A stretch of 51,726 nt of DNA from a virus: positions 1-51,726 of the IMG/VR virus record IMGVR_UViG_3300045988_076883. One strand, written 5' to 3'. Made by a program: the position numbers and the translations under genes. The stretch's first letter is position 1; each line of letters opens with the position of its first letter. Below the pieces are notes generated by a model. The model saw only the letters and a list, made by a program, of their open reading frames with translations. It did no database searches and was not told where the DNA came from. This document shows, one piece after another, positions 16,322 to 26,182 of the stretch.

Positions 16322-16807
16322 GTGACGGCGGCAGAAGCGGAAATCATCATCAAGTATTATGCGGACATTGCAGGACAGCAAAGGGCGATCATGCGGGAAC
16401 GTGCGGCGCTGGACGCGGAATACAGCCCATTGCGCGGCAATGCGCCGGACGGGATGCCGCACGCTGCCGGAAACGCAGACACAACAGCGCAGAAAGCAAT
16501 GCGGATGGCCGATACGGACACGGCCCGGCGGTTGTGTGAGCTGGATGTGCGGGAAAGCGTTTTGCAGGAGGACAAGGCGCTGATCCGGGCGGTGCTGGAC
16601 AGGCTGAACAGTAAACACAAAGAACTGCTGGCGACGCGCTATATCGACGGCCACAACTGGGAGTTTACGGCGTGCCGGGTCGGGTTGTCCCGGCGGCAGA
16701 CGATCCGGGTCAGCGTAGTGGCGTTGACGCGGCTGGGCGTGTTGTTGCAGGACGAGCCGCAGGCGGGAGAAATCCTCGCGCGGGCGCGTGATGCGTGCGC
16801 GTTATAA
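16322..16807 (+). CDS. Sigma-70 region-4-like transcription regulator (ArpU/RinA-type late activator candidate)
   Basis: C-terminal LLATRYIDGHNWEFTACRVGLSRRQTIRVSVVALTRL is an HTH. GTG start follows AAGGGGGTG. Confidence 0.6.
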   Translation: MTAAEAEIIIKYYADIAGQQRAIMRERAALDAEYSPLRGNAPDGMPHAAGNADTTAQKAMRMADTDTARRLCELDVRESVLQEDKALIRAVLDRLNSKHKELLATRYIDGHNWEFTACRVGLSRRQTIRVSVVALTRLGVLLQDEPQAGEILARARDACAL

Positions 16808-16823
16808 AGGCGGGGCAGATCGT

Positions 16824-16855
16824 TTACGCTGAATTTACGCTGAAAGTCAGCGTAA
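16824..16855. promoter_or_regulatory. TTACGCTGA direct repeat plus the perfect palindrome TTACGCTGA-aag-TCAGCGTAA
   Basis: Read directly at 16824-16832, 16835-16843 and 16847-16855. Followed by the tandem CGAAAAACACA x2 (16862-16883). Confidence 0.5.
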
Positions 16856-17011
16856 AATGTGCGAAAAACACACGAAAAACACACGGGTGGCAGGTTGCGT
16901 GCGCGTGCGTTGTCTTGATTTTTCAGCGGCGGTAAATTTGTGCGGACGCGCCTGATTTCCGAATACGGAAAAGGGCCGGGAGAAAAACAAACTTGCGAAA
17001 GGGTGAAAAGG

Positions 17012-17116
17012 ATGGAAAAATATATGCTTGTGCCGGAGAAAGTAGAGGCAATCGAGATCGTGCAGGACGGGAAAGTGGTTGCAACGATAGAACCGGGAGA
17101 GCAGGAGGAGAAGTGA
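17012..17116 (+). CDS. Very small hypothetical ORF (34 aa)
   Basis: GGGTGA RBS. The stop lies 4 nt before the next start. Not in the ORF track (too short). Confidence 0.35.
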   Translation: MEKYMLVPEKVEAIEIVQDGKVVATIEPGEQEEK

Positions 17117-17120
17117 GACG

Positions 17121-17330
17121 ATGGCGGAGGTTGTTACGGCGCAATTTGTAGGGTGGTCGTCCTGCGGGTTTGTGACGGGGAAATACTACGAGATCGAGGT
17201 AAGCGCCGGGCGGAGCGGGTGTCTATGTGTACGAGATGTGCAGGGGCAAGGGCTTTGCCTCTATTCCAAGCTGGAAAACCTGAAAAGAAACTGGCGTGTG
17301 CTGGATTTGAGGGAAACGGAAAATAAATAA
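17121..17330 (+). CDS. Hypothetical protein, last gene of the early operon
   Basis: GCAGGAGGAG RBS. Followed by a strong hairpin. Confidence 0.7.
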   Translation: MAEVVTAQFVGWSSCGFVTGKYYEIEVSAGRSGCLCVRDVQGQGLCLYSKLENLKRNWRVLDLRETENK

Positions 17331-17376
17331 AAATATCCCCCGGCGGGTCGTTGCGGCGGCCTGCCGGGGGATCGTT
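17321..17376. terminator. Bidirectional terminator between convergent operons
   Basis: ATCCCCCGGC (17335-17344) pairs with GCCGGGGGAT (17363-17372) plus inner pairs. An AT run lies on the left (a T-run for the minus strand). Confidence 0.8.
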
Positions 17377-17385
17377 GTTGTGGGG

Positions 17386-17610
17386 TTACTTTGTTGTGTA
17401 GTCGGGCCAGAGGTCCGATGTGGGGGTGAAACCGTCGCGGGTCATGCGCTCGCGGACGGCTTGCGTGATGTAGGCCTGCATAGACTGCCCTGCTGCAGAG
17501 GCAGCGGCGCGGATGTCTGTGCCGACGGGCTTTAGGGGCATAAACTCGATACGATCACACTTTGCCTTGTAGGCGTTGTTGCCGCGGCGGTGAGCTTCAG
17601 AAATGGGCAT
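17386..17610 (-). CDS. Ribbon-helix-helix (Arc/CopG-like) DNA-binding protein
   Basis: NAYKAKCDRIEFMPLKPVGTDIRAAASAAGQSMQAYITQAVRERM shows a beta-alpha-alpha pattern. GGAGG RBS precedes the ATG at 17610. Confidence 0.7.
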   Translation of the reverse strand: MPISEAHRRGNNAYKAKCDRIEFMPLKPVGTDIRAAASAAGQSMQAYITQAVRERMTRDGFTPTSDLWPDYTTK

Positions 17611-17641
17611 TTTGGGAAACCTCCTTGTGTGTGGTATCTTG

Positions 17642-17670
17642 ATTATACACCCCGGGTGTGCGGGGTGCAA
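17642..17670 (-). promoter_or_regulatory. Leftward promoter with a GC palindrome in the spacer
   Basis: Minus strand reads TTGCAC (17670-17665), 17 nt, TATAAT (17647-17642). The spacer contains ACACCCCGGGTGT. Confidence 0.65.
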
Positions 17671-17769
17671 GAGAAAATGTGCGGAATATAACAACTGCTG
17701 TTGTGGGTGGCTCCCGCGACCTTGCCCGGCGGGCTGCCGGGTGGTTTCGGCCCTTGCCGGGGGCCATCG

Positions 17770-19416
17770 TCAGGCGGGGTTGTGGGCGGCAAGCTGCATA
17801 AGCGTTGCGGTGGTGGGGATCAGGTGGCGGGCCATCGTGTCGTTGTAGGAGGTCTCGCCCTCGAAGCTGTCCACGACGGAGCGATCTGCCGTGCTCATGT
17901 CGTGGTAGGTCTTTTTGCCGTAGGACGGCGGGAGCCAGCCCTTTTTCTGGGATGCAAAGATGTTGAAGGATTTCAGCACATCGGCGTTGGTGAACTCAAT
18001 GTGACAGGTGCCCTTCTTGTAGAACGTGGCGGTGAAGTAGTGCAGCTTGATCTTTGCGGTCTGGCCGTTGTCCTCGGCAGCTTTGAGGGCGGCGCGGAGG
18101 TCGTCGCCGTTGTAGGCGGTGCCGTTGGTGTCGAGGAAGTGGAGCGTTTTCTCGATGTTGGCGATCTCGTCTGCTGCGCAGGTGGGACGGAGCTTGTCGG
18201 ACCAGTACGAATAGACATTGCAGCGGAAAATGACGCGCTTGCCGATCTTATACGCCTCGTTGGTGCACCAACCGTTGTAATAGTGGACATTTTTGCTGTA
18301 CTCGCTGTTGTAGTGGAGGTTGGTCCAGTCGTCGAACAGGCGGATGATCTCGGATTCGATGTTTGCAACGATGTTGCGAGAGATTTCCTCGCGCACGGTC
18401 AGGATGTTGTAGGGGGTAAAATCGTAGTGGCGAAGATCGTTAATGCGCTTGCGGTAGTCGTTCTGCATCGTCTGCGTCATGGCATCGCGGATCTGCGGCA
18501 GGTCGAAAAGCTGCTCCCAGTAGATGGCACGGAGATCGCACAGCGCGTCGTTGTAGCCTTTGTTGAGGGAAACACAGGGCGCGGGGGCGCTGCTGTCGCC
18601 CTGCTTTTTGGGCAGGGTGAACAGAGAGGAAATGCCATCGTATTCTTCATACAGGCGGGCCAGACCGTCCGCGGCGGCGTTGTAGCGCTCGACTGCTGCC
18701 GTGATGGGGTCATTGCTGACGAGGGCGGCCAGGTCGGGCGCGGCCTGGTAGCGCTGTGTCGTCTCGGCGTTGAGCTCTAAGCGGATGCGGGAGACCGGCG
18801 GCGCGGGCGGGATCGTGACAAAAACGAGCGCAACCTCCACCGCGGTTTTGCGGGCGGCGTGGGTGAAAGCGTCCTGCTTGTAGGTGATCCGGGCGTTGTA
18901 CTTGGCAAGCAGGGAGGCAAGCTCCTTGCGCTCGTTGGTGCAGGGGTTGCGGATCGTCTCGGCGTTGAGGATGCAGCGCACTTCCCCGCCCCGCTCCATG
19001 ATGTGCAGGGCGTGCAGCAGGTGACGCGCACCCTCGGAAAACGGCGGATTCATGATAATTGCCTTATAGTGGGCGCGGGGCGTGAAGGTGAGGAAATCGT
19101 CGTGGATGACGCGGAAGCCGTTTTCTTTGAGGGTGGCGCGGAGGGCGGCGGACTGCTCGATGCAATCAAGCTGCAAGCGCGTGAGGGTGTCGTTGTTGGT
19201 GTTGGCGCGGTAGTCGCTGGCGCGTTTGTTGCCGACGTACCAGCACCCGGCGGCTTTTTCGATGGCGCGGGCGAGGTCGCCAGAACCGGCGGACGGCTCC
19301 AGGATGGGGCCGCCTGCATACTCGATGCTGTGACCGTCGATCTTGAGACCGGCGAGAAGCTCCGCGGCGAGGGCCGGGGGCGTTGGGTAGTAGTCTTTGC
19401 TGTCGTTGGGGATCAT
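17770..19416 (-). CDS. Orphan N6-adenine DNA methyltransferase with a large C-terminal domain (DUF4942-like)
   Basis: Motif I LEPSAGSGDL and motif IV IIMNPPF. No adjacent restriction gene. Confidence 0.85.
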   Translation of the reverse strand: MIPNDSKDYYPTPPALAAELLAGLKIDGHSIEYAGGPILEPSAGSGDLARAIEKAAGCWYVGNKRASDYRANTNNDTLTRLQLDCIEQSAALRATLKENGFRVIHDDFLTFTPRAHYKAIIMNPPFSEGARHLLHALHIMERGGEVRCILNAETIRNPCTNERKELASLLAKYNARITYKQDAFTHAARKTAVEVALVFVTIPPAPPVSRIRLELNAETTQRYQAAPDLAALVSNDPITAAVERYNAAADGLARLYEEYDGISSLFTLPKKQGDSSAPAPCVSLNKGYNDALCDLRAIYWEQLFDLPQIRDAMTQTMQNDYRKRINDLRHYDFTPYNILTVREEISRNIVANIESEIIRLFDDWTNLHYNSEYSKNVHYYNGWCTNEAYKIGKRVIFRCNVYSYWSDKLRPTCAADEIANIEKTLHFLDTNGTAYNGDDLRAALKAAEDNGQTAKIKLHYFTATFYKKGTCHIEFTNADVLKSFNIFASQKKGWLPPSYGKKTYHDMSTADRSVVDSFEGETSYNDTMARHLIPTTATLMQLAAHNPA

Positions 19417-19501
19417 GGTGTGTTACCTCCTGTTTTTTGGGTTGTGGCGGCGGGCCGTTGTGCAGCTGGCCCGCGGGGCGCTGTTGCCGTTGTGGGGGCT
19501 G

Positions 19502-19843
19502 CCGTTGGTCTTATGCCCGGCGGCGTTGTGCTGGGGCGTGCCCTCTCTCGCGGGGCTGGCGGGTTTCACTTTTTGCGCCCGGGGCGCGGGATAAGAACGC
19601 GGCGAACCTGGCCGGAACGACCGGCGGCGGGTGCAATCTGTTTTGTGGGGAGGTGCACCGGCTCCCGTTGGGCTTATGCCCGGCGGCGTTGTGCTGGGGC
19701 GTGCCCTCTCTCGCGGGGCTGGCGGGTTTCACTTTTTGCGCCCGGGGCGCGGGATAAGAACGCGGCGAACCTGGCCGGAACGACCGGCGGCGGGTGCAAT
19801 CTGTTTTGTGGGGAGGTGCACCGGCTCCCGTTGGGCTTATGCC
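19502..19843. repeat. 163-bp tandem repeat (2 full units plus 16 nt) in the methyltransferase leader
   Basis: Units start at 19502, 19665 and 19828. Units 2 and 3 are identical over the shared part. Confidence 0.9.
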
Positions 19844-19924
19844 GTCCCCCCGGCGGGGCGGCTGCCATTGTGTGGCGATGGGTGCGCGTTGTTGTGATCG
19901 TTGCCGGGGTCGTGTTATGTTGTT

Positions 19925-19999
19925 ACCCATGAGCGCCCGCCACATTGTGGCGGCGGCTGGGCTTGCACCAGCGGCGCGGGATCGCGTCGGCCTTGCGGG
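19925..19999 (-). repeat. Structured intergenic element, copy E4
   Basis: Minus sense reads CCCGCAAGGCCGA..GGTGCAAGCCCAG..GCGCTCATGGGT. It abuts the stop codon at 20000. Confidence 0.85.
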
Positions 20000-20311
20000 T
20001 CAGGATACATAACCGCAATAGCGATAGTCTAGGATGATGTCGTCGGTGACATCGTCCGGCGTGGCGTTGTCGGACATCGTGCAGGCGACGACGTCGCCGG
20101 TCAGCCAATCGTCGCAGCCGGTGAGGGTGAACAGCTGGCCGGACCCGGTGCGGAATGTGACCAGCTCGGCGGCGCGGTCCACCTGGACGACCACACCGGC
20201 CAGCGGGTAGGTGCTGGGCGCGGGCGGCTCGGCTGGCGTTGTGGGGGCCGTCTTGATGATGTAAACGGCGGCGGTGGTGATGTAGGCGGCGATGACGATT
20301 GCCTTGTGCAT
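20000..20311 (-). CDS. Small membrane-anchored or secreted protein
   Basis: N-terminal hydrophobic MHKAIVIAAYITTAAVYII followed by a Pro-rich linker. AAGGAGG RBS. Confidence 0.75.
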   Translation of the reverse strand: MHKAIVIAAYITTAAVYIIKTAPTTPAEPPAPSTYPLAGVVVQVDRAAELVTFRTGSGQLFTLTGCDDWLTGDVVACTMSDNATPDDVTDDIILDYRYCGYVS

Positions 20312-20344
20312 GGTGGGGACCTCCTTGTTGTGTTGTGGGTGGTG

Positions 20345-20427
20345 GATCGGGTGGACCCATGAGCGCCGCCCCGTTGCGCGGGGCGCCGGGCTTGCACCGG
20401 CGGCGCGTTATGCGTCGGCCTTGCGGG
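20345..20427 (-). repeat. Structured intergenic element, copy E3
   Basis: Same consensus. Begins 3 nt after the stop codon at 20431. Confidence 0.85.
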
Positions 20428-20430
20428 TCG

Positions 20431-20646
20431 TTACCAGATGCGCTTGATCTCGGGGAGCAGGCCGAGACGGCGGTAGGTGGTTGTTATACTCTCGTTACCG
20501 CAGAACCAACCGCAGTGTATAAACTCGTCGCGGGCTTGCTCAATCGTGATTGCACCGGCGAGAAAATCGCGGCGCAGGGACTTGTCAACGGTGGGAATAT
20601 CGAAAACGCGGTTTAGAGGGGAAATATGGGGACGTTTGCGGGTCAT
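20431..20646 (-). CDS. Hypothetical small protein (71 aa)
   Basis: RBS context ACAGGAGGTAACACACCATG is identical to that of the methyltransferase gene. Confidence 0.75.
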   Translation of the reverse strand: MTRKRPHISPLNRVFDIPTVDKSLRRDFLAGAITIEQARDEFIHCGWFCGNESITTTYRRLGLLPEIKRIW

Positions 20647-20680
20647 GGTGTGTTACCTCCTGTTGTGGGTGTTGTGGGTG

Positions 20681-20765
20681 AATCGGGTGGACCCATGAGC
20701 GCCCGCCGCGTTGTGGCGGCGGCTGGGCTTGCACCAGCGGCGGCGGATGCCGTCGGCCTTGCGGG
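20681..20765 (-). repeat. Structured intergenic element, copy E2
   Basis: Same consensus. Begins 10 nt after the stop codon at 20776. Confidence 0.85.
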
Positions 20766-20775
20766 TCGTGGCAGG

Positions 20776-21441
20776 TCATGCGAGGACCTGCGCGGCGAGG
20801 GTGGCGAAATCGAGCTGCACCGGCTCCGGCGTGGGGGCATCGTCATGCAAGGTGTGATGCTCGACGACTGCGACGACGGCGGCGGGCTTGCTGGGTTCCG
20901 GCGTGGGGGCCGGTGCCGGGATCGTGGGCGCTGCCGGTGCCGTTGTGGCGGCGACCTGCTGCGCGGCGCGGCGGGCCTTGCGGGCGGCGGCAAGCTCGGC
21001 ATTGCGGGCGGCGATCTCGTCCGGCGTCTTGACGTGGACGGGGGCCGGGCGCTCGACCTGGGCGGCGGTGAACAAGTAGCAACGCTTCATGTAGTAGTGG
21101 GGGTCGGGGGCGTCGTCGCCGTTGTCGCTGCGCTGGGCCTTCGGGGGCTTGTCGGTCCAGCGCCACAGCATGGCGGAGATCGTGGCCTTCTGGCCGCGCT
21201 TTACCTGCAAGCCCTGGGCCTTCCATGTGTTGTAGGTGTGCAGGCTGTCGGCGATGGTAGCCTGTTCGGCGGTGTCGATGTAGTCGGCGGCGGTGCCGGT
21301 GCCGGTGGCCTCGGCCATAGCGGCGGCGCGGGCGGTGATCTGCTCCGGCGTGGCGAGCGTGGCGGCCAGGGCGTGGATCTCGGCGGGGGTGTAGGTGATG
21401 CCGACGGCTTCATAGATCAAAGTGTTATTATCGCGGGTCAT
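20776..21441 (-). CDS. Hypothetical protein with a weak ArdC-N-like motif and an Ala/Pro-rich C-terminal half
   Basis: TYNTWKAQGLQVKRGQKA resembles the TfxQaxxxGxxVrKGEKg signature of ArdC N-terminal domains. This is recalled from memory and not verified. Confidence 0.45.
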   Translation of the reverse strand: MTRDNNTLIYEAVGITYTPAEIHALAATLATPEQITARAAAMAEATGTGTAADYIDTAEQATIADSLHTYNTWKAQGLQVKRGQKATISAMLWRWTDKPPKAQRSDNGDDAPDPHYYMKRCYLFTAAQVERPAPVHVKTPDEIAARNAELAAARKARRAAQQVAATTAPAAPTIPAPAPTPEPSKPAAVVAVVEHHTLHDDAPTPEPVQLDFATLAAQVLA

Positions 21442-21477
21442 AGTGTGTAGCCTCCTGTTGTGTTGGTGTTGGTGGTG

Positions 21478-21561
21478 GATCGGGTGGACCCATGAGCGCC
21501 GCCCCGTTGCGCGGGGCGCTGGGCTTGCACCAGCGGCGGCGGATGCCGTCGGCCTTGCGGG
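21478..21561 (-). repeat. Structured intergenic element, copy E1
   Basis: Same consensus. Begins 2 nt after the stop codon at 21564. Confidence 0.85.
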
Positions 21562-21563
21562 CT

Positions 21564-21839
21564 TTACATGATGACGCCCCGGCTTTTCATGGCCTGCTTT
21601 AAGTCGTGGCTGCTGATGTTGCGCCAGTTTTCGGCCCAGTTGATGACGGCGTTTTGCGCCCAGAACGGAACCGCCAGCCGGTCGAGCTGATCCATGGAGA
21701 AACGGATTGACGCGTCGCAGCGGTCAAGGTTGCGCCGATCATTGGGGAACAGCTCGCGGATGTTGTAAAGCTCGGCGACCCAGAACGCCAGGCCGTCAAG
21801 CTCTTTGGCCTGCTTTTTTGTGCAAATAAACTCTTGCAT
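21564..21839 (-). CDS. Hypothetical protein (91 aa), first gene of the leftward accessory operon
   Basis: GGAGGATATAAAATG gives the RBS and start at 21839. The upstream part of the 302-aa ORF is repeat DNA plus promoter. Confidence 0.75.
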   Translation of the reverse strand: MQEFICTKKQAKELDGLAFWVAELYNIRELFPNDRRNLDRCDASIRFSMDQLDRLAVPFWAQNAVINWAENWRNISSHDLKQAMKSRGVIM

Positions 21840-21941
21840 TTTATATCCTCCTGTTTCGTGCCGCCTTGCCCGGCTTGCAACCCGCGGCCCTGCTGGGCGG
21901 CGGCTCCACCGGTCGGCGGCTGTTTTGCTTGGTGTGATTGC

Positions 21942-22017
21942 ATCATACACCCCGGGGTGTAAAAAGTCAACACCCCGGGGTGAAGTTTGTGGAAAATAGA
22001 CAAAACACCCCGGGGTG
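21942..22017 (-). promoter_or_regulatory. Leftward promoter with three ACACCCCGGGGTG(T) palindromic operator-like sites
   Basis: Minus strand reads TTGACT (21970-21965), 17 nt, TATGAT (21947-21942). Sites lie at 21947-21960 (in the spacer), 21970-21982 (over the -35) and 22005-22017. Confidence 0.65.
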
Positions 22018-22062
22018 AAAATGTGCAGGCTGCACAAGCTGCACAGGATCGAGCCGGATCGC

Positions 22063-22470
22063 CAGCCCGGCAGCAGATCGGCAACCAGGCAGCAGGACGG
22101 CAGCCCACAGCACCGGGCCGCCCCTTCATCATAAGGACGGACAGCGGCAGCCCGGCAGCAGGACGGCAGCCCGGCAGCAGATCGGCAACCAGGCAGCAGA
22201 TCGGCAGCAGGACGGCAGCCCGGCAGCAGCCCGGCAGCAGGACGGCAGCCCGGCAGCCCACAGCACCGGGCCGCCCCTTCATCATAAGGACGGACAGCGG
22301 CAGCCCGGCAGCAGGACGGCAGCCCGGCAGCAGATCGGCAACCAGGCAGCAGATCGGCAGCAGGACGGCAGCCCGGCAGCAGCCCGGCAGCAGGACGGCA
22401 GCCCGGCAGCCCACAGCACCGGGCCGCCCCTTCATCATAAGGACGGACAGCGGCAGCCCGGCAGCAGATC
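22063..22470. repeat. 153-bp tandem repeat array (about 2.7 units) built from GGCAGCAG(GA/AT)CGG sub-repeats
   Basis: The anchor CCCACAGCACCGGGCCGCCCCTTCATCATAAGGACGG occurs at 22104, 22257 and 22410. Confidence 0.9.
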
Positions 22471-22817
22471 ACCGGCCCGGCGGGGCGGCCTTACTTTGTT
22501 TATAAGGACATAGAATCGTTTGAAATCCGGTTTATGGGACGATAAAAAGAATAAAGAAATCCGATAAAGAGGACCGTAAGCAACGCAGAGCCGGGCGTTC
22601 GGCGGTAGGTTCTGCCGCGCCGCCCGCAGGCTGTGCGGGTTCGGAAGCGCGAAAGTTTGGTAGGTTTGTAATTTTTTTTGGCATTTCCGTTCGGGCGGGG
22701 CGGAAAAAGTGGGGGCTGAAATTGTCGAGCCGGGGTTGATGCGGCAGGGGTTTGGTTGAGCCTTGCCGGGGCTGCGGTTGATCCGGGCGGGGCGAACTGG
22801 TGACAATTTGTCGCTGG

Positions 22818-22847
22818 TTGAAATAGAAAAAATACGGAGAGTATAAA
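22818..22847 (+). promoter_or_regulatory. Candidate rightward promoter upstream of the packaging genes
   Basis: TTGAAA (22818-22823), 18 nt, TATAAA (22842-22847) in the AT-richer 22470-22990 region. Weak evidence. Confidence 0.3.
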
Positions 22848-22993
22848 ATTTTTTAGGGGAAATTTACAAAATGTCACCATGTGGCACGGTTTTAGGGGTA
22901 GAATTGGTACAGTGAGAAATTTAAGAGAACGCCCGGCGGGTTATCCTGCGCGGGCGTTCGGTGTTTATGCGGCAAGTTTTGGAGGGAGGAACG

Positions 22994-23725
22994 ATGGCGC
23001 GGAGATCGGATGCGAGGGATAAGGCGAAAGCTGAATACATCCGGCGGCGGGCTGTTGGGGAAAATATAAACCTGAAAGAATTTGCCGGGGAGATGGGCGC
23101 GAACTACGAGAGCTTGCGCCGATGGAAAGTAAAGGACGGCTGGGAAAAGGACGTACCGCGCAAGCGCGGCGGGCAGCCGGGAAACAAAAACAGTAAGGGA
23201 AAGAAAAACGCAAAAGGCAACAAGGGCGGCGGCGCACCCAGGGAAAACAAGAACGCCGAGAAAGACGGAGCATACAGCGCCGTCTTTTTTGATGCCCTGA
23301 CGAAAGAGGACCAGGACTTTTTGAACCAGACGCCGACCGGGGCCGTGGAAAACCTGCGGCATGAGTTGAAAGTTTTGCGGTGGCGTGAAAAGAAAATCCT
23401 TGAAAAAATCCACGAGTACGAACAGGTGGAGGATGAAGAAACACTGTACCTGAACGGCACGATGATGGACATGGAGATGAAAGACACGCCGTTTGCCCGG
23501 GTGCAGAAATTGCAGGAAGCCTTGTACAAGGTGCAGGGGCGGGCCGCAACGATCATTGGCGCGATACGGCAGGCCGAGGAAAACGACCGGCGGTACAAGC
23601 TGGAACGGGAGCGGTTGGAACTGGCGCGGATGAAAGCCACGGGCGAAGTTGAGGTAGACGATGTGGAGCCGCCGCCGGACGAAACGGAAACCGGGGAGCA
23701 GCCGGAAGAAAACGAGAAAATGTAA
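22994..23725 (+). CDS. Small-terminase-like protein, type 1 (N-terminal HTH region, Gly/Asn/Lys-rich linker, coiled coil)
   Basis: GGAGGGAGG RBS precedes the ATG at 22994. SLRRWKVKDGW...RGGQPGNKNSKGKKNAKGNKGGGAPRENKNA is typical of one terS family. Confidence 0.65.
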   Translation: MARRSDARDKAKAEYIRRRAVGENINLKEFAGEMGANYESLRRWKVKDGWEKDVPRKRGGQPGNKNSKGKKNAKGNKGGGAPRENKNAEKDGAYSAVFFDALTKEDQDFLNQTPTGAVENLRHELKVLRWREKKILEKIHEYEQVEDEETLYLNGTMMDMEMKDTPFARVQKLQEALYKVQGRAATIIGAIRQAEENDRRYKLERERLELARMKATGEVEVDDVEPPPDETETGEQPEENEKM

Positions 23726-24251: not shown

Positions 24252-24456
24252 ACGGTGCCGCGCCTGCGCTTTTGGTGAGGTCGTGAATGAAAGCACGGTG
24301 TTCTGCCCGTTTGGGCGGTGCGCCGCAAAGAGGTTGCAGCGATATGGCAAAAAGAAAAACCATAGCCGTGCCGCCGCAGACAAGGGCGATGCTGGCGCGG
24401 GTGGTGGCAAAGCTGAAACCGCCCCCGACCATGACGTTGAGCCAGTGGGCGGATAA
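24223..24456 (+). CDS. Possible small zinc-ribbon ORF overlapping the terS/terL junction
   Basis: AGGAGGG RBS lies 9 nt before the ATG at 24223. CRAC...CPFGRC. Overlaps both neighbours, so it may be spurious. Confidence 0.3.
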   Translation: MEELTKNQSKRCRACAFGEVVNESTVFCPFGRCAAKRLQRYGKKKNHSRAAADKGDAGAGGGKAETAPDHDVEPVGG

Positions 24457-26182
24457 AGAGCGGCGGTTGAGCCAGGGGGCGAGTGCCCTGCCGGGACGGT
24501 GGCGCACGGACAAGGCCCCCTACCAGCGCGGCATGATGGACGCGATCAGCGACCCCCATGTGCGCAAGGTAGTTGTGAAAAGCTGTGCGCAGATCGGCAA
24601 GACGGACGCGCTGGTGCTGAACACCATCGGCTACTACATGAACTACAACCCCTCCCCCATTATGGTTTTGCAGCCGACATTGGACATGGGGCAGGGATTC
24701 AGCAAGGAAAAACTAAGCCCAATGCTGCGTGACACACCCTGCCTGCGCGGACTGGTGGATAACCGCAGCCGCATGAGCGGCAACACGATTTTGCTGAAAA
24801 ACTACCCCGGCGGGTATTTGGTCATTGTGGGTGCGAACAGCCCGGCCAGCCTTGCCAGCCGCCCCATCAAGGTGCTGCTGGCGGACGAGATAGACCGCTA
24901 CCCTGCCAGCGCCGGAACCGAGGGCGACCCGCTATCGCTTGCCGAAAAGCGGCAGACGACATTCTGGGATAAAAAGCAGGTGTTTGTGAGCACGCCGACG
25001 CTGGAACAGACGAGCCGCATAAAGGTGGAGTTTGAACACAGCACGCAGGAAGAATTTGAAATCCCCTGCCCAAGCTGCGGACACTACCAACCGCTGGTGT
25101 GGGCGAACCTGAAATTTGACCCGGAGAACCCGAAGAACCCGCAGTACGTTTGCGAACGGTGCGGCGTGGCCGACAGTGAGACGCACTGGAAAAAACAGAT
25201 GATCCGCGGAGAGTGGGTAGCAAAATGCCCCGGCGAAGCGGCGCGGGGATTCCACCTGACAACGCTGTGCTCGAGCTTTTGCAGCTGGGATGAAGTGGTA
25301 GAGAAGTTTTTGAAAGCGAAAGAACAGCTGAACGCAGGAGACCCGGAGTTGATGAAAACATGGGTCAACACAGAGCTGGGCGAGACGTGGACAGAACAGG
25401 GCGAAACCGTGGAGGAAGCGGACCTGTACGGACGGCGCGAAGCCTACAAGGCGGATGTGCCGGACGATGTGGTAGTGCTGACTGCCGGAGTAGATACGCA
25501 AGATGACCGCTTTGAAGTGGAGGTCGTGGGATGGGGAGCCGGAAAGGAAAGCTGGGGCATACGCTACCAGAAGATTTACGGCGACCTTTTGAAAGATACG
25601 GTGTGGAAAGACCTTGACGAGTTTTTGAACAGAACGTGGTACAAGGCGGACGGTACGCCGATGAAGATCATAGCGACCTGCATGGACAGCGGCGGACACT
25701 TCCCCGATGAAGTGCTGCGGTTCTGCAAGGACAGGTGGCACCGGCGCATCTTTGCCATTAAAGGCCGCGGCGGTACGGATGTGCCCTACCTGAAAAACCC
25801 GACGAAGAACAACCGCGTGAAAGCGCCGCTGTTCACGATTGGTGTTGACACCGGCAAGGGCGTTTTGTACCAGCGGTTGAAGGTGAAGATGCCGGGGCCG
25901 AACTACTGCCACTTCCCGCAGGGGGAAGCGGCAGGATACGACTACAACTACTTCCGCGGGTTGACAGCGGAAAAGATGGTGGTGCGCTACCGCAAGGGGC
26001 GGGCCGTGATCGCATGGGAGCTGAAAGGCGACTACAAGCGAAACGAGCCGTTGGACCTGCGGAACTACGCCACGGCAGCGCTGGAAATTACAAACCCCGT
26101 GTTGGAAAGCAGCCCGGTGGCGAGTGAAGCGCAGCGCACCGTGCGGCGCACGGGCCGCAGACAGGTTAGCGGAGGTATTTAA
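24344..26182 (+). CDS. terL: Terminase large subunit, lambda GpA family
   Basis: N-terminal TLSQWADKERRLS..SALPGRWRTDKAPYQRGMMD and Walker-like SCAQIGKT. Size fits. Start is ambiguous (24287, 24344 or 24389). Confidence 0.9.
   Translation: MAKRKTIAVPPQTRAMLARVVAKLKPPPTMTLSQWADKERRLSQGASALPGRWRTDKAPYQRGMMDAISDPHVRKVVVKSCAQIGKTDALVLNTIGYYMNYNPSPIMVLQPTLDMGQGFSKEKLSPMLRDTPCLRGLVDNRSRMSGNTILLKNYPGGYLVIVGANSPASLASRPIKVLLADEIDRYPASAGTEGDPLSLAEKRQTTFWDKKQVFVSTPTLEQTSRIKVEFEHSTQEEFEIPCPSCGHYQPLVWANLKFDPENPKNPQYVCERCGVADSETHWKKQMIRGEWVAKCPGEAARGFHLTTLCSSFCSWDEVVEKFLKAKEQLNAGDPELMKTWVNTELGETWTEQGETVEEADLYGRREAYKADVPDDVVVLTAGVDTQDDRFEVEVVGWGAGKESWGIRYQKIYGDLLKDTVWKDLDEFLNRTWYKADGTPMKIIATCMDSGGHFPDEVLRFCKDRWHRRIFAIKGRGGTDVPYLKNPTKNNRVKAPLFTIGVDTGKGVLYQRLKVKMPGPNYCHFPQGEAAGYDYNYFRGLTAEKMVVRYRKGRAVIAWELKGDYKRNEPLDLRNYATAALEITNPVLESSPVASEAQRTVRRTGRRQVSGGI

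Follow-up and report, generated by a model that had tools for sequence, protein, structure and literature searches.

What are the four similar elements that separate the small genes of a leftward accessory operon in the viral record IMGVR_UViG_3300045988_076883, and what could their presence mean for the expression and exchange of these genes? The DNA analysed, hereafter the window, covers positions 1 to 51,726 of this record (51,726 nt), and the elements, named E1 to E4 in the direction of transcription, lie on its minus strand. The leftward unit reads, in order, ORF1, E1, ORF2, E2, ORF3, E3, ORF4, E4, about 510 nt of non-coding DNA, a methyltransferase gene, a short ORF and a terminator. Searching the whole window against Rfam 15 at gathering thresholds returned a single family, the twister-sister ribozyme (RF02681), with four minus-strand matches, all covering the full model: E1 at 21565-21483 (76.9 bits, model positions 1-81 of 81; from P1 to P1, 21562-21488), E2 at 20769-20686 (79.9 bits; 20766-20691), E3 at 20431-20350 (79.1 bits; 20428-20355) and E4 at 20003-19920 (82.8 bits; 20000-19925). 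The gathering score of this family is 34 bits, and the E-values of the four matches were about 1e-17. Permissive E-values, applied to 19300-22600 and 17300-17900, gave nothing credible in Rfam except twister-sister. The class was reportedly first described by Weinberg et al. in 2015. An original prediction, made before any database search, had placed the four repeats within 5 nt of the Rfam spans, its 3' ends taking in a GGGUCCACCCGAU tail that lies outside the ribozyme. It had recognised no named RNA family and had listed a hit to a known one among the outcomes that would speak against it; a full-length match to RF02681 is what was found.

The Rfam alignments fold E1 to E4 as the four-way-junction type, with five helices (P1 to P5), including P1 ACCC/GGGU, P2 GCC/GGC and P4 GCYG/CRGC. 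The conserved 5' flank corresponds to the P1 strand ACCC, the L1 strand GCAAG and P2 GCC, and the conserved 3' flank to P2 GGC, the L1 strand GCUCAU and P1 GGGU. P4 closes the invariant loop GUGCAAGCC (SL4), identical in the four copies, and the L1 strands GCAAG and (C)GCUCAU are intact in all of them, including the C-A cleavage step. In the crystal structure of the four-way-junction form (PMC5660989), the conserved L1 residues are G5, C6, A8 and G9 on one strand and C58, G59, C60, U61, C62, A63 and U64 on the other; the SL4 loop makes long-range contacts with L1, and the scissile bond is C62-A63, of which A63 is essential and not replaceable. By family membership and fold, E1 to E4 are twister-sister self-cleaving ribozymes, cleavage itself being predicted. 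Both hairpins of the earlier two-hairpin picture found a place in this structure, hairpin A as P3 and hairpin B as P5; with P1, P2 and P4 the helices number five, and P4 had been overlooked.

Compensatory stem changes, reported earlier from the four copies, proved genuine in a larger sample. A core-based exact-match pattern retrieved at least 120 stretches from IMG/VR and 29 from GTDB genomes, and a covariance model built from 12 copies produced 167 matches in the window and 99 viral loci, from which 102 distinct sequences were used for pairing. Among these, 98.7% of cells paired canonically, against 34-54% with slid partners, in an alignment that was fitted to the model and with parts of P1 and P2 fixed by the retrieval pattern, P3, P4 and P5 being unconstrained by it. 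Two-sided changes were seen in 8 of the 20 pairs (159 cells), and the variable P4 pair was UA in 80 sequences and CG in 21. Element E3 carries this compensatory P4 variant (GCCG/CGGC, against GCUG...CAGC); its A-to-G change in CCCAG, earlier taken for a G-U pairing with UGGG, is actually the 3' half of the P4 change from U-A to C-G. The covariation, the invariant catalytic core and the occurrence of other ribozyme classes in relatives argue together that the ribozyme is the selected function, in line with the earlier suggestion of selection on RNA structure rather than on coding.

The layout of these elements was analysed across relatives with a tolerant regular expression, which found at least 202 copies in at least 121 sources, 36 of them with two to seven copies. 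Among the matches listed, 184 copies had an ORF upstream, and in 180 of these its stop codon ended between -4 and +11 nt from where P1 begins; a start codon preceded by a ribosome-binding site came next, at a median of 49 nt past the predicted cleavage site, and exactly one ORF was present in 89 of the 113 ribozyme-to-ribozyme intervals. The commonest stop offset was -1, at which stop codon and P1 share one base, the last of the former and the first of the latter. In the window, the elements begin beside minus-strand stop codons as had been described, with measured offsets of -1 to +9 nt; the stop codon of ORF4 overlaps P1 of E4. Each element is followed, on the minus strand of 18900-22500, by a C/A-rich tract and AGGAGG ahead of the next ATG. 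The CA-rich leaders of the original prediction, in which C and A do dominate, were confirmed in this way, as were the verbatim occurrence of ACAGGAGGTAACACACCATG ahead of both 20646 and 19416 and the recurring unit of ORF, element and standard leader. Recurring clusters of flanked ORFs included an ArdC-N-like protein, a DUF4942 methyltransferase and a match to phrog_19458, and many clusters were without match; Pfam and PHROGs searches with the ten largest clusters of flanking ORFs returned almost nothing. Other Rfam motifs typed as ribozymes (Hammerhead_II, RAGATH-5) share contigs with twister-sister copies in relatives, several per contig. Loci L067, L013, L001 and L009 (L numbers denote retrieved loci) carry RAGATH-5, up to five times in L067, and Hammerhead_II matches beside twister-sister. 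A twister-sister match is also carried by L124 (JAHZGF010000030.1), a metagenome-assembled genome of a Clostridiales bacterium.

According to the original prediction, one copy of the repeat should follow every ORF of the operon. This did not hold for its last large ORF, the methyltransferase, which is followed instead by a hammerhead-like element (17711-17778, minus strand). This candidate type I hammerhead contains, in order, CUGACGA, an extra U, a 5-bp stem II, GAAAC, a stem III with internal loop, GGUC and a 5-bp stem I. All core hammerhead nucleotides are present (CUGACGA-U-GGCCC...GGGCC-GAAAC...GGUC), with the required pairs G10.1-C11.1 and C15.2-G16.2, and the predicted cut GUC|G falls at 17718|17717. 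The stop codon UGA of the methyltransferase sits within the CUGACGA box. The extra U stands between A9 and G10.1; natural hammerheads are known to vary by an additional nucleotide there, and in one from a viroid a U accelerates cleavage (PMC3705267, PMC4209133).

A descriptor search of the loci found 16 such motifs, all with the extra U even though the descriptor did not require U, and a covariance model of their own gave 18 copies, the window element scoring 66 bits. Among 11 sequences, most of which were picked by a descriptor requiring the stems, 99.3% of cells were paired and two-sided changes occurred in 6 of 14 pairs. Compensatory changes were found in all three stems, and homologues defined by BLAST show the exchange of GGCCC/GGGCC for GACCC/GGGUC. 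The Rfam hammerhead models gave no match to the window element at the gathering score nor at E-values up to 10 or up to 1, and for this reason it is presented as a candidate hammerhead variant missed by Rfam rather than as a filed member. The variant begins at the stop codon in the copies read (the window, L144 and L084). The hammerhead-like match of L084 was dropped as support, a C replacing the conserved U4. With the candidate included, every junction from ORF1 to the methyltransferase has a predicted self-cleaving motif.

The site of cleavage, mapped from the crystal structure (PMC5660989), is predicted at GCGCUC^AUGGG, that is at 21494|21493 in E1, 20697|20696 in E2, 20361|20360 in E3 and 19931|19930 in E4. 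Because this cut lies near the 3' end, almost the entire ribozyme would remain on the upstream fragment and the downstream one would start with AUGGGU; for twister-sister and type I hammerheads alike, only 5-6 nt of ribozyme are predicted to be left on the downstream product. The first standard leader (21442-21493, minus strand) consists of 5'-AUGGGUCCACCCGAUCC, a possible 5' hairpin, followed by a C/A-rich tract and AGGAGG ahead of the ORF2 ATG. Over 127 unique predicted 3' products, positions 6-26 were mostly A or C. A CCC located 3-12 nt past the P1 GGG was present in 85 of them, against 27 +/- 4.4 in shuffles (maximum 40), with CCC starts peaking 9-13 nt from the predicted new 5' end, and minimum-energy folding of the first 26 nt paired the GGG in 96 products, about 65 being expected. 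Hammerhead products share this arrangement, which covaries with stem I in L125 (GUGG...CCAC). These figures are suggestive only of a tendency of downstream products to start with a short 5' hairpin. The conserved AUG at the cleavage site was also weighed as a possible start codon of a small ORF without leader, a reading rejected on the grounds that frames and stops differ between copies: the frame runs for 21 codons in E1, its stop overlaps the next ATG in E2, and in E3 it extends over 145 codons, out of frame.

Transcription signals in the region were compatible with a single message. A sigma-70-like promoter (TTGACT, 17 nt, TATGAT) at 21942-21970 is the sole promoter-like site on the minus strand of 16800-22700, and the unit ends at 17320-17372 with an intrinsic minus-strand terminator (a 17-bp G+C-rich stem, then a U-rich tail). 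The scan of 16800-22700 detected no promoter-like or terminator-like site inside the repeats; no minus-strand terminator-like site was found at E1 to E4, the other listed one falling inside the methyltransferase gene. From one promoter-like site upstream, no terminator-like site at the elements and a strong terminator at 17372-17320, a single transcript may be proposed. Such a leftward RNA would start from the promoter at 21970-21942 and carry ORF1, ORF2, ORF3, ORF4, the non-coding region and the methyltransferase. Each ribozyme would fold just past the stop codon of the preceding gene and cut at GCGCUC^AUGGG, so that the upstream message would keep the whole catalytic fold, with its 2',3'-cyclic phosphate, as a structured 3' end. 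On the downstream side the message would open with 5'-OH-AUGGGU, followed by the short complement ACCC, an unfoldable leader nearly devoid of G and U, and a strong ribosome-binding site. The hammerhead-type ribozyme past the methyltransferase would do the same at the last junction, and the outcome would be single-gene messages with uniform 5' ends, independent of their neighbours. The ribozymes thus probably process one operon transcript into single-gene messages, in the manner of insulators. Membership in RF02681, the fold, the covariation, the layout and the mosaic breakpoints described below are the observations from which we infer that the RNA is cut in vivo, what becomes of its products and that the phage benefits.

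Several points weigh against this processing scheme. Owing to the exact-match retrieval, the loci sample one sequence subtype of the family only. The 5' hairpins of the window products, folded singly, are no stabler than shuffles (z -0.6 to +0.5), and the proposal of a hairpin draws on enrichment at given positions in loci that share ancestry. Moreover, cleavage could have a destabilising instead of an insulating effect on the downstream genes: the glmS ribozyme of Firmicutes (Bacillus) yields a 5'-OH product that is a substrate of RNase J1. It can accordingly be imagined that the ribozymes serve as destabilisers or regulators, their 5'-OH ends being open to 5' exonuclease, so that expression would fall along the operon or answer a signal, and for hammerheads of phages a regulation of cleavage has been suggested (PMC3088659). 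However, genes that each come with a ribozyme, a conserved strong ribosome-binding site and a leader lacking structure look set up to be expressed, not silenced, the complement able to sequester the new 5' end is enriched, and nothing like a ligand-binding domain is attached to E1-E3. A destabilising role is therefore held to be unlikely.

The alternative that the elements act mainly at the DNA level, as recombination linkers or boundaries of mobile cassettes with RNA structure as a secondary trait, draws on the mosaicism of the locus. BLASTN comparison of 16501-23500 with the retrieved loci placed breakpoints at ORF starts, at element starts or inside elements. In L072 and L003, ORF1 is swapped for an unrelated ORF, homology stopping at its ATG (21837) and restarting at 21561, within the first bases of E1. 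In L004, ORF3, E3 and ORF4 are replaced by one different small ORF, with breaks at 20650 and 20000, and L069 lacks exactly ORF3 and one ribozyme unit, the flanking matches overlapping on the one unit left. The methyltransferase has been exchanged in L072 and L069, over the stretch from its ribosome-binding site to the hammerhead. The order of genes varies as well, cluster C5 of the flanking ORFs preceding cluster C1 in L061 and L133 and following it in the window, so that order and content change by single-ORF units. Ribozyme copies are also more alike within a locus (87.9% identity) than between loci (82.3%), a value reached by none of 500 permutations, and in L003 three copies are identical except for one flanking base, at which the window copies differ among themselves. 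Short intergenic repeats with a comparable role have a precedent in the PeSL cassettes of T4-type phages (PMC2839356, PMC4122927).

Breakpoints at ORF-element junctions or inside elements, combined with this within-locus likeness, suggest that the breakpoints at the elements probably arise through homologous recombination, and the data fit a homogenisation of copies within one genome, the repeated unit of ribozyme and leader, about 130 nt long, being the substrate of gene conversion and homologous recombination. The neighbouring ORFs thus do vary between close relatives, being swapped, deleted or reordered with breakpoints at the elements, and to that extent the earlier idea of a cassette boundary stands; no sign of a dedicated site-specific cassette system accompanied it. 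Yet a linker needs sequence identity alone, whereas the stems here change and still pair, and the catalytic nucleotides are invariant. Ribozyme motifs of unrelated sequence occur in the same contigs of relatives, in the copies read the hammerhead variant begins at a stop codon, and the elements have neither promoter nor terminator. A primarily DNA-level function is for these reasons considered improbable. Under the processing scheme, the same exchanges would be a side effect: the repeats of about 130 nt would offer homology through which recombination could swap, delete and reorder single genes between related phages.

A further possibility is that the fragment between two ribozymes is ligated, by the reverse ribozyme reaction or by RtcB, into a circular single-gene RNA. 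Internal fragments would have an AUGGGU 5' end and, at the 3' end, a ribozyme without that strand; the P1 core CCC/GGG is common to all copies in the operon, so that the ends could pair, and circles were considered by Perreault et al. in the case of clustered hammerheads (PMC3088659). The same authors sought circular or spliced products and found none, P1 comprises only 4 bp, and the enriched downstream complement of P1 would compete with rejoining, which makes circles very unlikely. Ordinary intergenic hairpins (terminators, REP-like repeats or attC-like sites), evoked by G+C-rich inverted repeats right after stop codons, are refuted: P5 is followed in E1-E4 by GGCGCUCAUGGG without a U-tract, the transcribed strand has no terminator-like site there, and the conserved unpaired core and five-helix fold match the ribozyme model at E of about 1e-17.

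Processing of the transcript might also release a further structured RNA. A conserved non-coding region of about 143 nt (19789-19930, minus strand) starts at the predicted cleavage site of E4, and 39 copies of it were found in 38 sources (including L004, L006, L010, L025, L031, L037, L052, L069, L072, L098, L122 and L132), always 97-100 nt past a twister-sister cleavage site. It always comes after an E4-type copy, and different ORFs come next. Several of its helices covary (e.g. GGUGCA/UGCACC against GGUACA/UGUACC), it had no Rfam match, and a frameshifting 1-nt indel in L069 excludes a coding function. Folding of the whole 514-nt non-coding stretch gave z = -0.35, structure being seen only in the comparative alignment. 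The non-coding region further contains a tandem duplication of 2 x 163 nt (19497-19822), bounded by the similar motifs GGCATAAGCCCAACGGGAGCC and GGCATAAGACCAACGGCAGCC, of which relatives have one copy.

Concerning the genes themselves, ORF1 (21564-21839, minus strand as are all genes of the unit; 91 aa) had no family match. ORF2 (20776-21441, 221 aa), a member of cluster C1, which counts 59 flanking ORFs among the matches listed, shows a weak likeness to the N-terminal domain of the anti-restriction protein ArdC (Pfam PF08401 at E 8e-4, under the curated cut-off; phrog_7245 'anti-restriction protein' at E 1e-5). It is followed by ORF3 (20431-20646, 71 aa) and by ORF4 (20000-20311, 103 aa), which belongs to cluster C9. 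The DNA methyltransferase (17770-19416, 548 aa) has a DUF4942 domain (Pfam PF13708, 5e-39) and matches PHROG DNA methyltransferase families, and is preceded by the same ribosome-binding-site context that recurs in the operon. The label 'anti-defence operon' derives from only this methyltransferase and the weak ArdC-N similarity.

Upstream of ORF1, the 12-nt palindrome CACCCCGGGGTG occurs three times exactly (21948-21959, 21971-21982 and 22006-22017), flanking or overlapping the promoter; 0.2 occurrences were expected and none of 100 shuffles reached three. These palindromes are presumed to be repressor operators. A related motif, CACACCCGGGGTG, lies beside a TATAAT box at 17660-17642, upstream of a 74-aa ORF (17610-17386). 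A guess that this ORF encodes a ribbon-helix-helix repressor received no support from Pfam and was abandoned. The 5' untranslated region of ORF1 (21840-21935, minus strand) holds GGGUUGCAAGCC and GGGCAAGGCGG, which resemble the twister-sister SL4 loop and L1 strand; no Rfam threshold returned anything there, and this look-alike may be a decayed copy or a coincidence. An array of 2.6 x 153-nt units (22057-22467), built of 19-nt sub-repeats CGGCAGCCCGGCAGCAGGA, separates the leftward promoter from a rightward ORF weakly similar to a small terminase subunit (22961-23725); this array could be a packaging or replication site.

Judged by its gene content, the window is a myovirus-like phage, with PHROG matches for a large terminase (24287-26182), portal, major head protein, tail sheath, tape measure, tail proteins and a replication initiator. 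The genomes matched by the retrieval pattern belong to Colidextribacter, Gemmiger, Faecalibacterium, Angelakisella, Acutalibacter and Pseudoflavonifractor, by which the hosts are gut Oscillospiraceae and relatives. Megablast of 17500-23000 against GenBank phages gave no match.

Taken as one system, these features might describe a portable insulator made of a ribozyme of any class, a 5' hairpin formed by its outer-helix strand with a downstream complement, and a leader free of G and U, used between genes in anti-defence operons of gut Clostridia phages, whose units would at the same time be gene-shuffling linkers, with one twister-sister subtype releasing an RNA of about 143 nt belonging to no described family and a U10 hammerhead subtype escaping Rfam. 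The combination as a whole can be put forward only tentatively and is less likely than not to hold. The locus nevertheless offers a clean test case for the processing hypothesis, with one regulated promoter, five ribozyme junctions at stop codons, uniform leaders and one terminator. The layout statistics, drawn from about 150 loci, predict 5'-OH ends at named positions, protection by the 5' hairpin and dependence on RNase J. The analysis of breakpoints connects the shuffling of genes in accessory regions of phages with ribozyme repeats, and the hammerhead variant and the twister-sister-linked RNA are small additions that could be curated.

According to a 2019 review (PMC6765202), the role of small self-cleaving ribozymes in bacterial and phage genomes is still open, and polycistronic processing is the standing hypothesis for those of bacteria; our literature search found no paper settling the function of twister-sister in phages. 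With respect to RF02681, the ribozymes described here show no difference in themselves: the full-length match, the P1-P5 fold, the conserved nucleotides of L1 and SL4, the C-A cleavage step and the phage-like neighbourhood are all shared. What the present analysis adds is context: P1 abutted by a stop codon, intervals of one ORF each, a standard leader and, after one subtype, the linked 143-nt RNA.

A similar arrangement is that of the clustered hammerheads of Perreault et al. (2011, PMC3088659), which flank single genes, including ardA, in prophages, cleave in vitro and were proposed to process long phage transcripts. In both cases ribozymes on the same strand bracket variable accessory genes, the anti-restriction gene ardA there, an ArdC-N-like gene and an orphan methyltransferase here; the present elements are twister-sister ribozymes with one hammerhead variant, in phages of gut Oscillospiraceae. 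The PeSL cassettes of T4-type phages likewise consist of short intergenic repeats that bracket small variable ORFs in plastic regions and mark where insertion, deletion and replacement occur. However, PeSL combines a promoter with a terminator stem-loop and acts on transcription, whereas the elements E1 to E4 have neither and would act post-transcriptionally. RiboJ insulators (Lou et al. 2012; PMC6206723), in which a ribozyme is followed by a hairpin and expression is raised, have in common with the proposed products a ribozyme, a short 5' hairpin, an exposed ribosome-binding site and a uniform 5' end, the last being predicted here. RiboJ is synthetic, derives from the sTRSV hammerhead and is placed after promoters, while the present elements are natural, lie between cistrons and belong to another ribozyme class; their putative hairpin is shorter and built from the ribozyme's own P1 strand. 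The RNA class and the clustering of ribozymes around prophage accessory genes are thus both known, and E1 to E4 are new members in a known arrangement.

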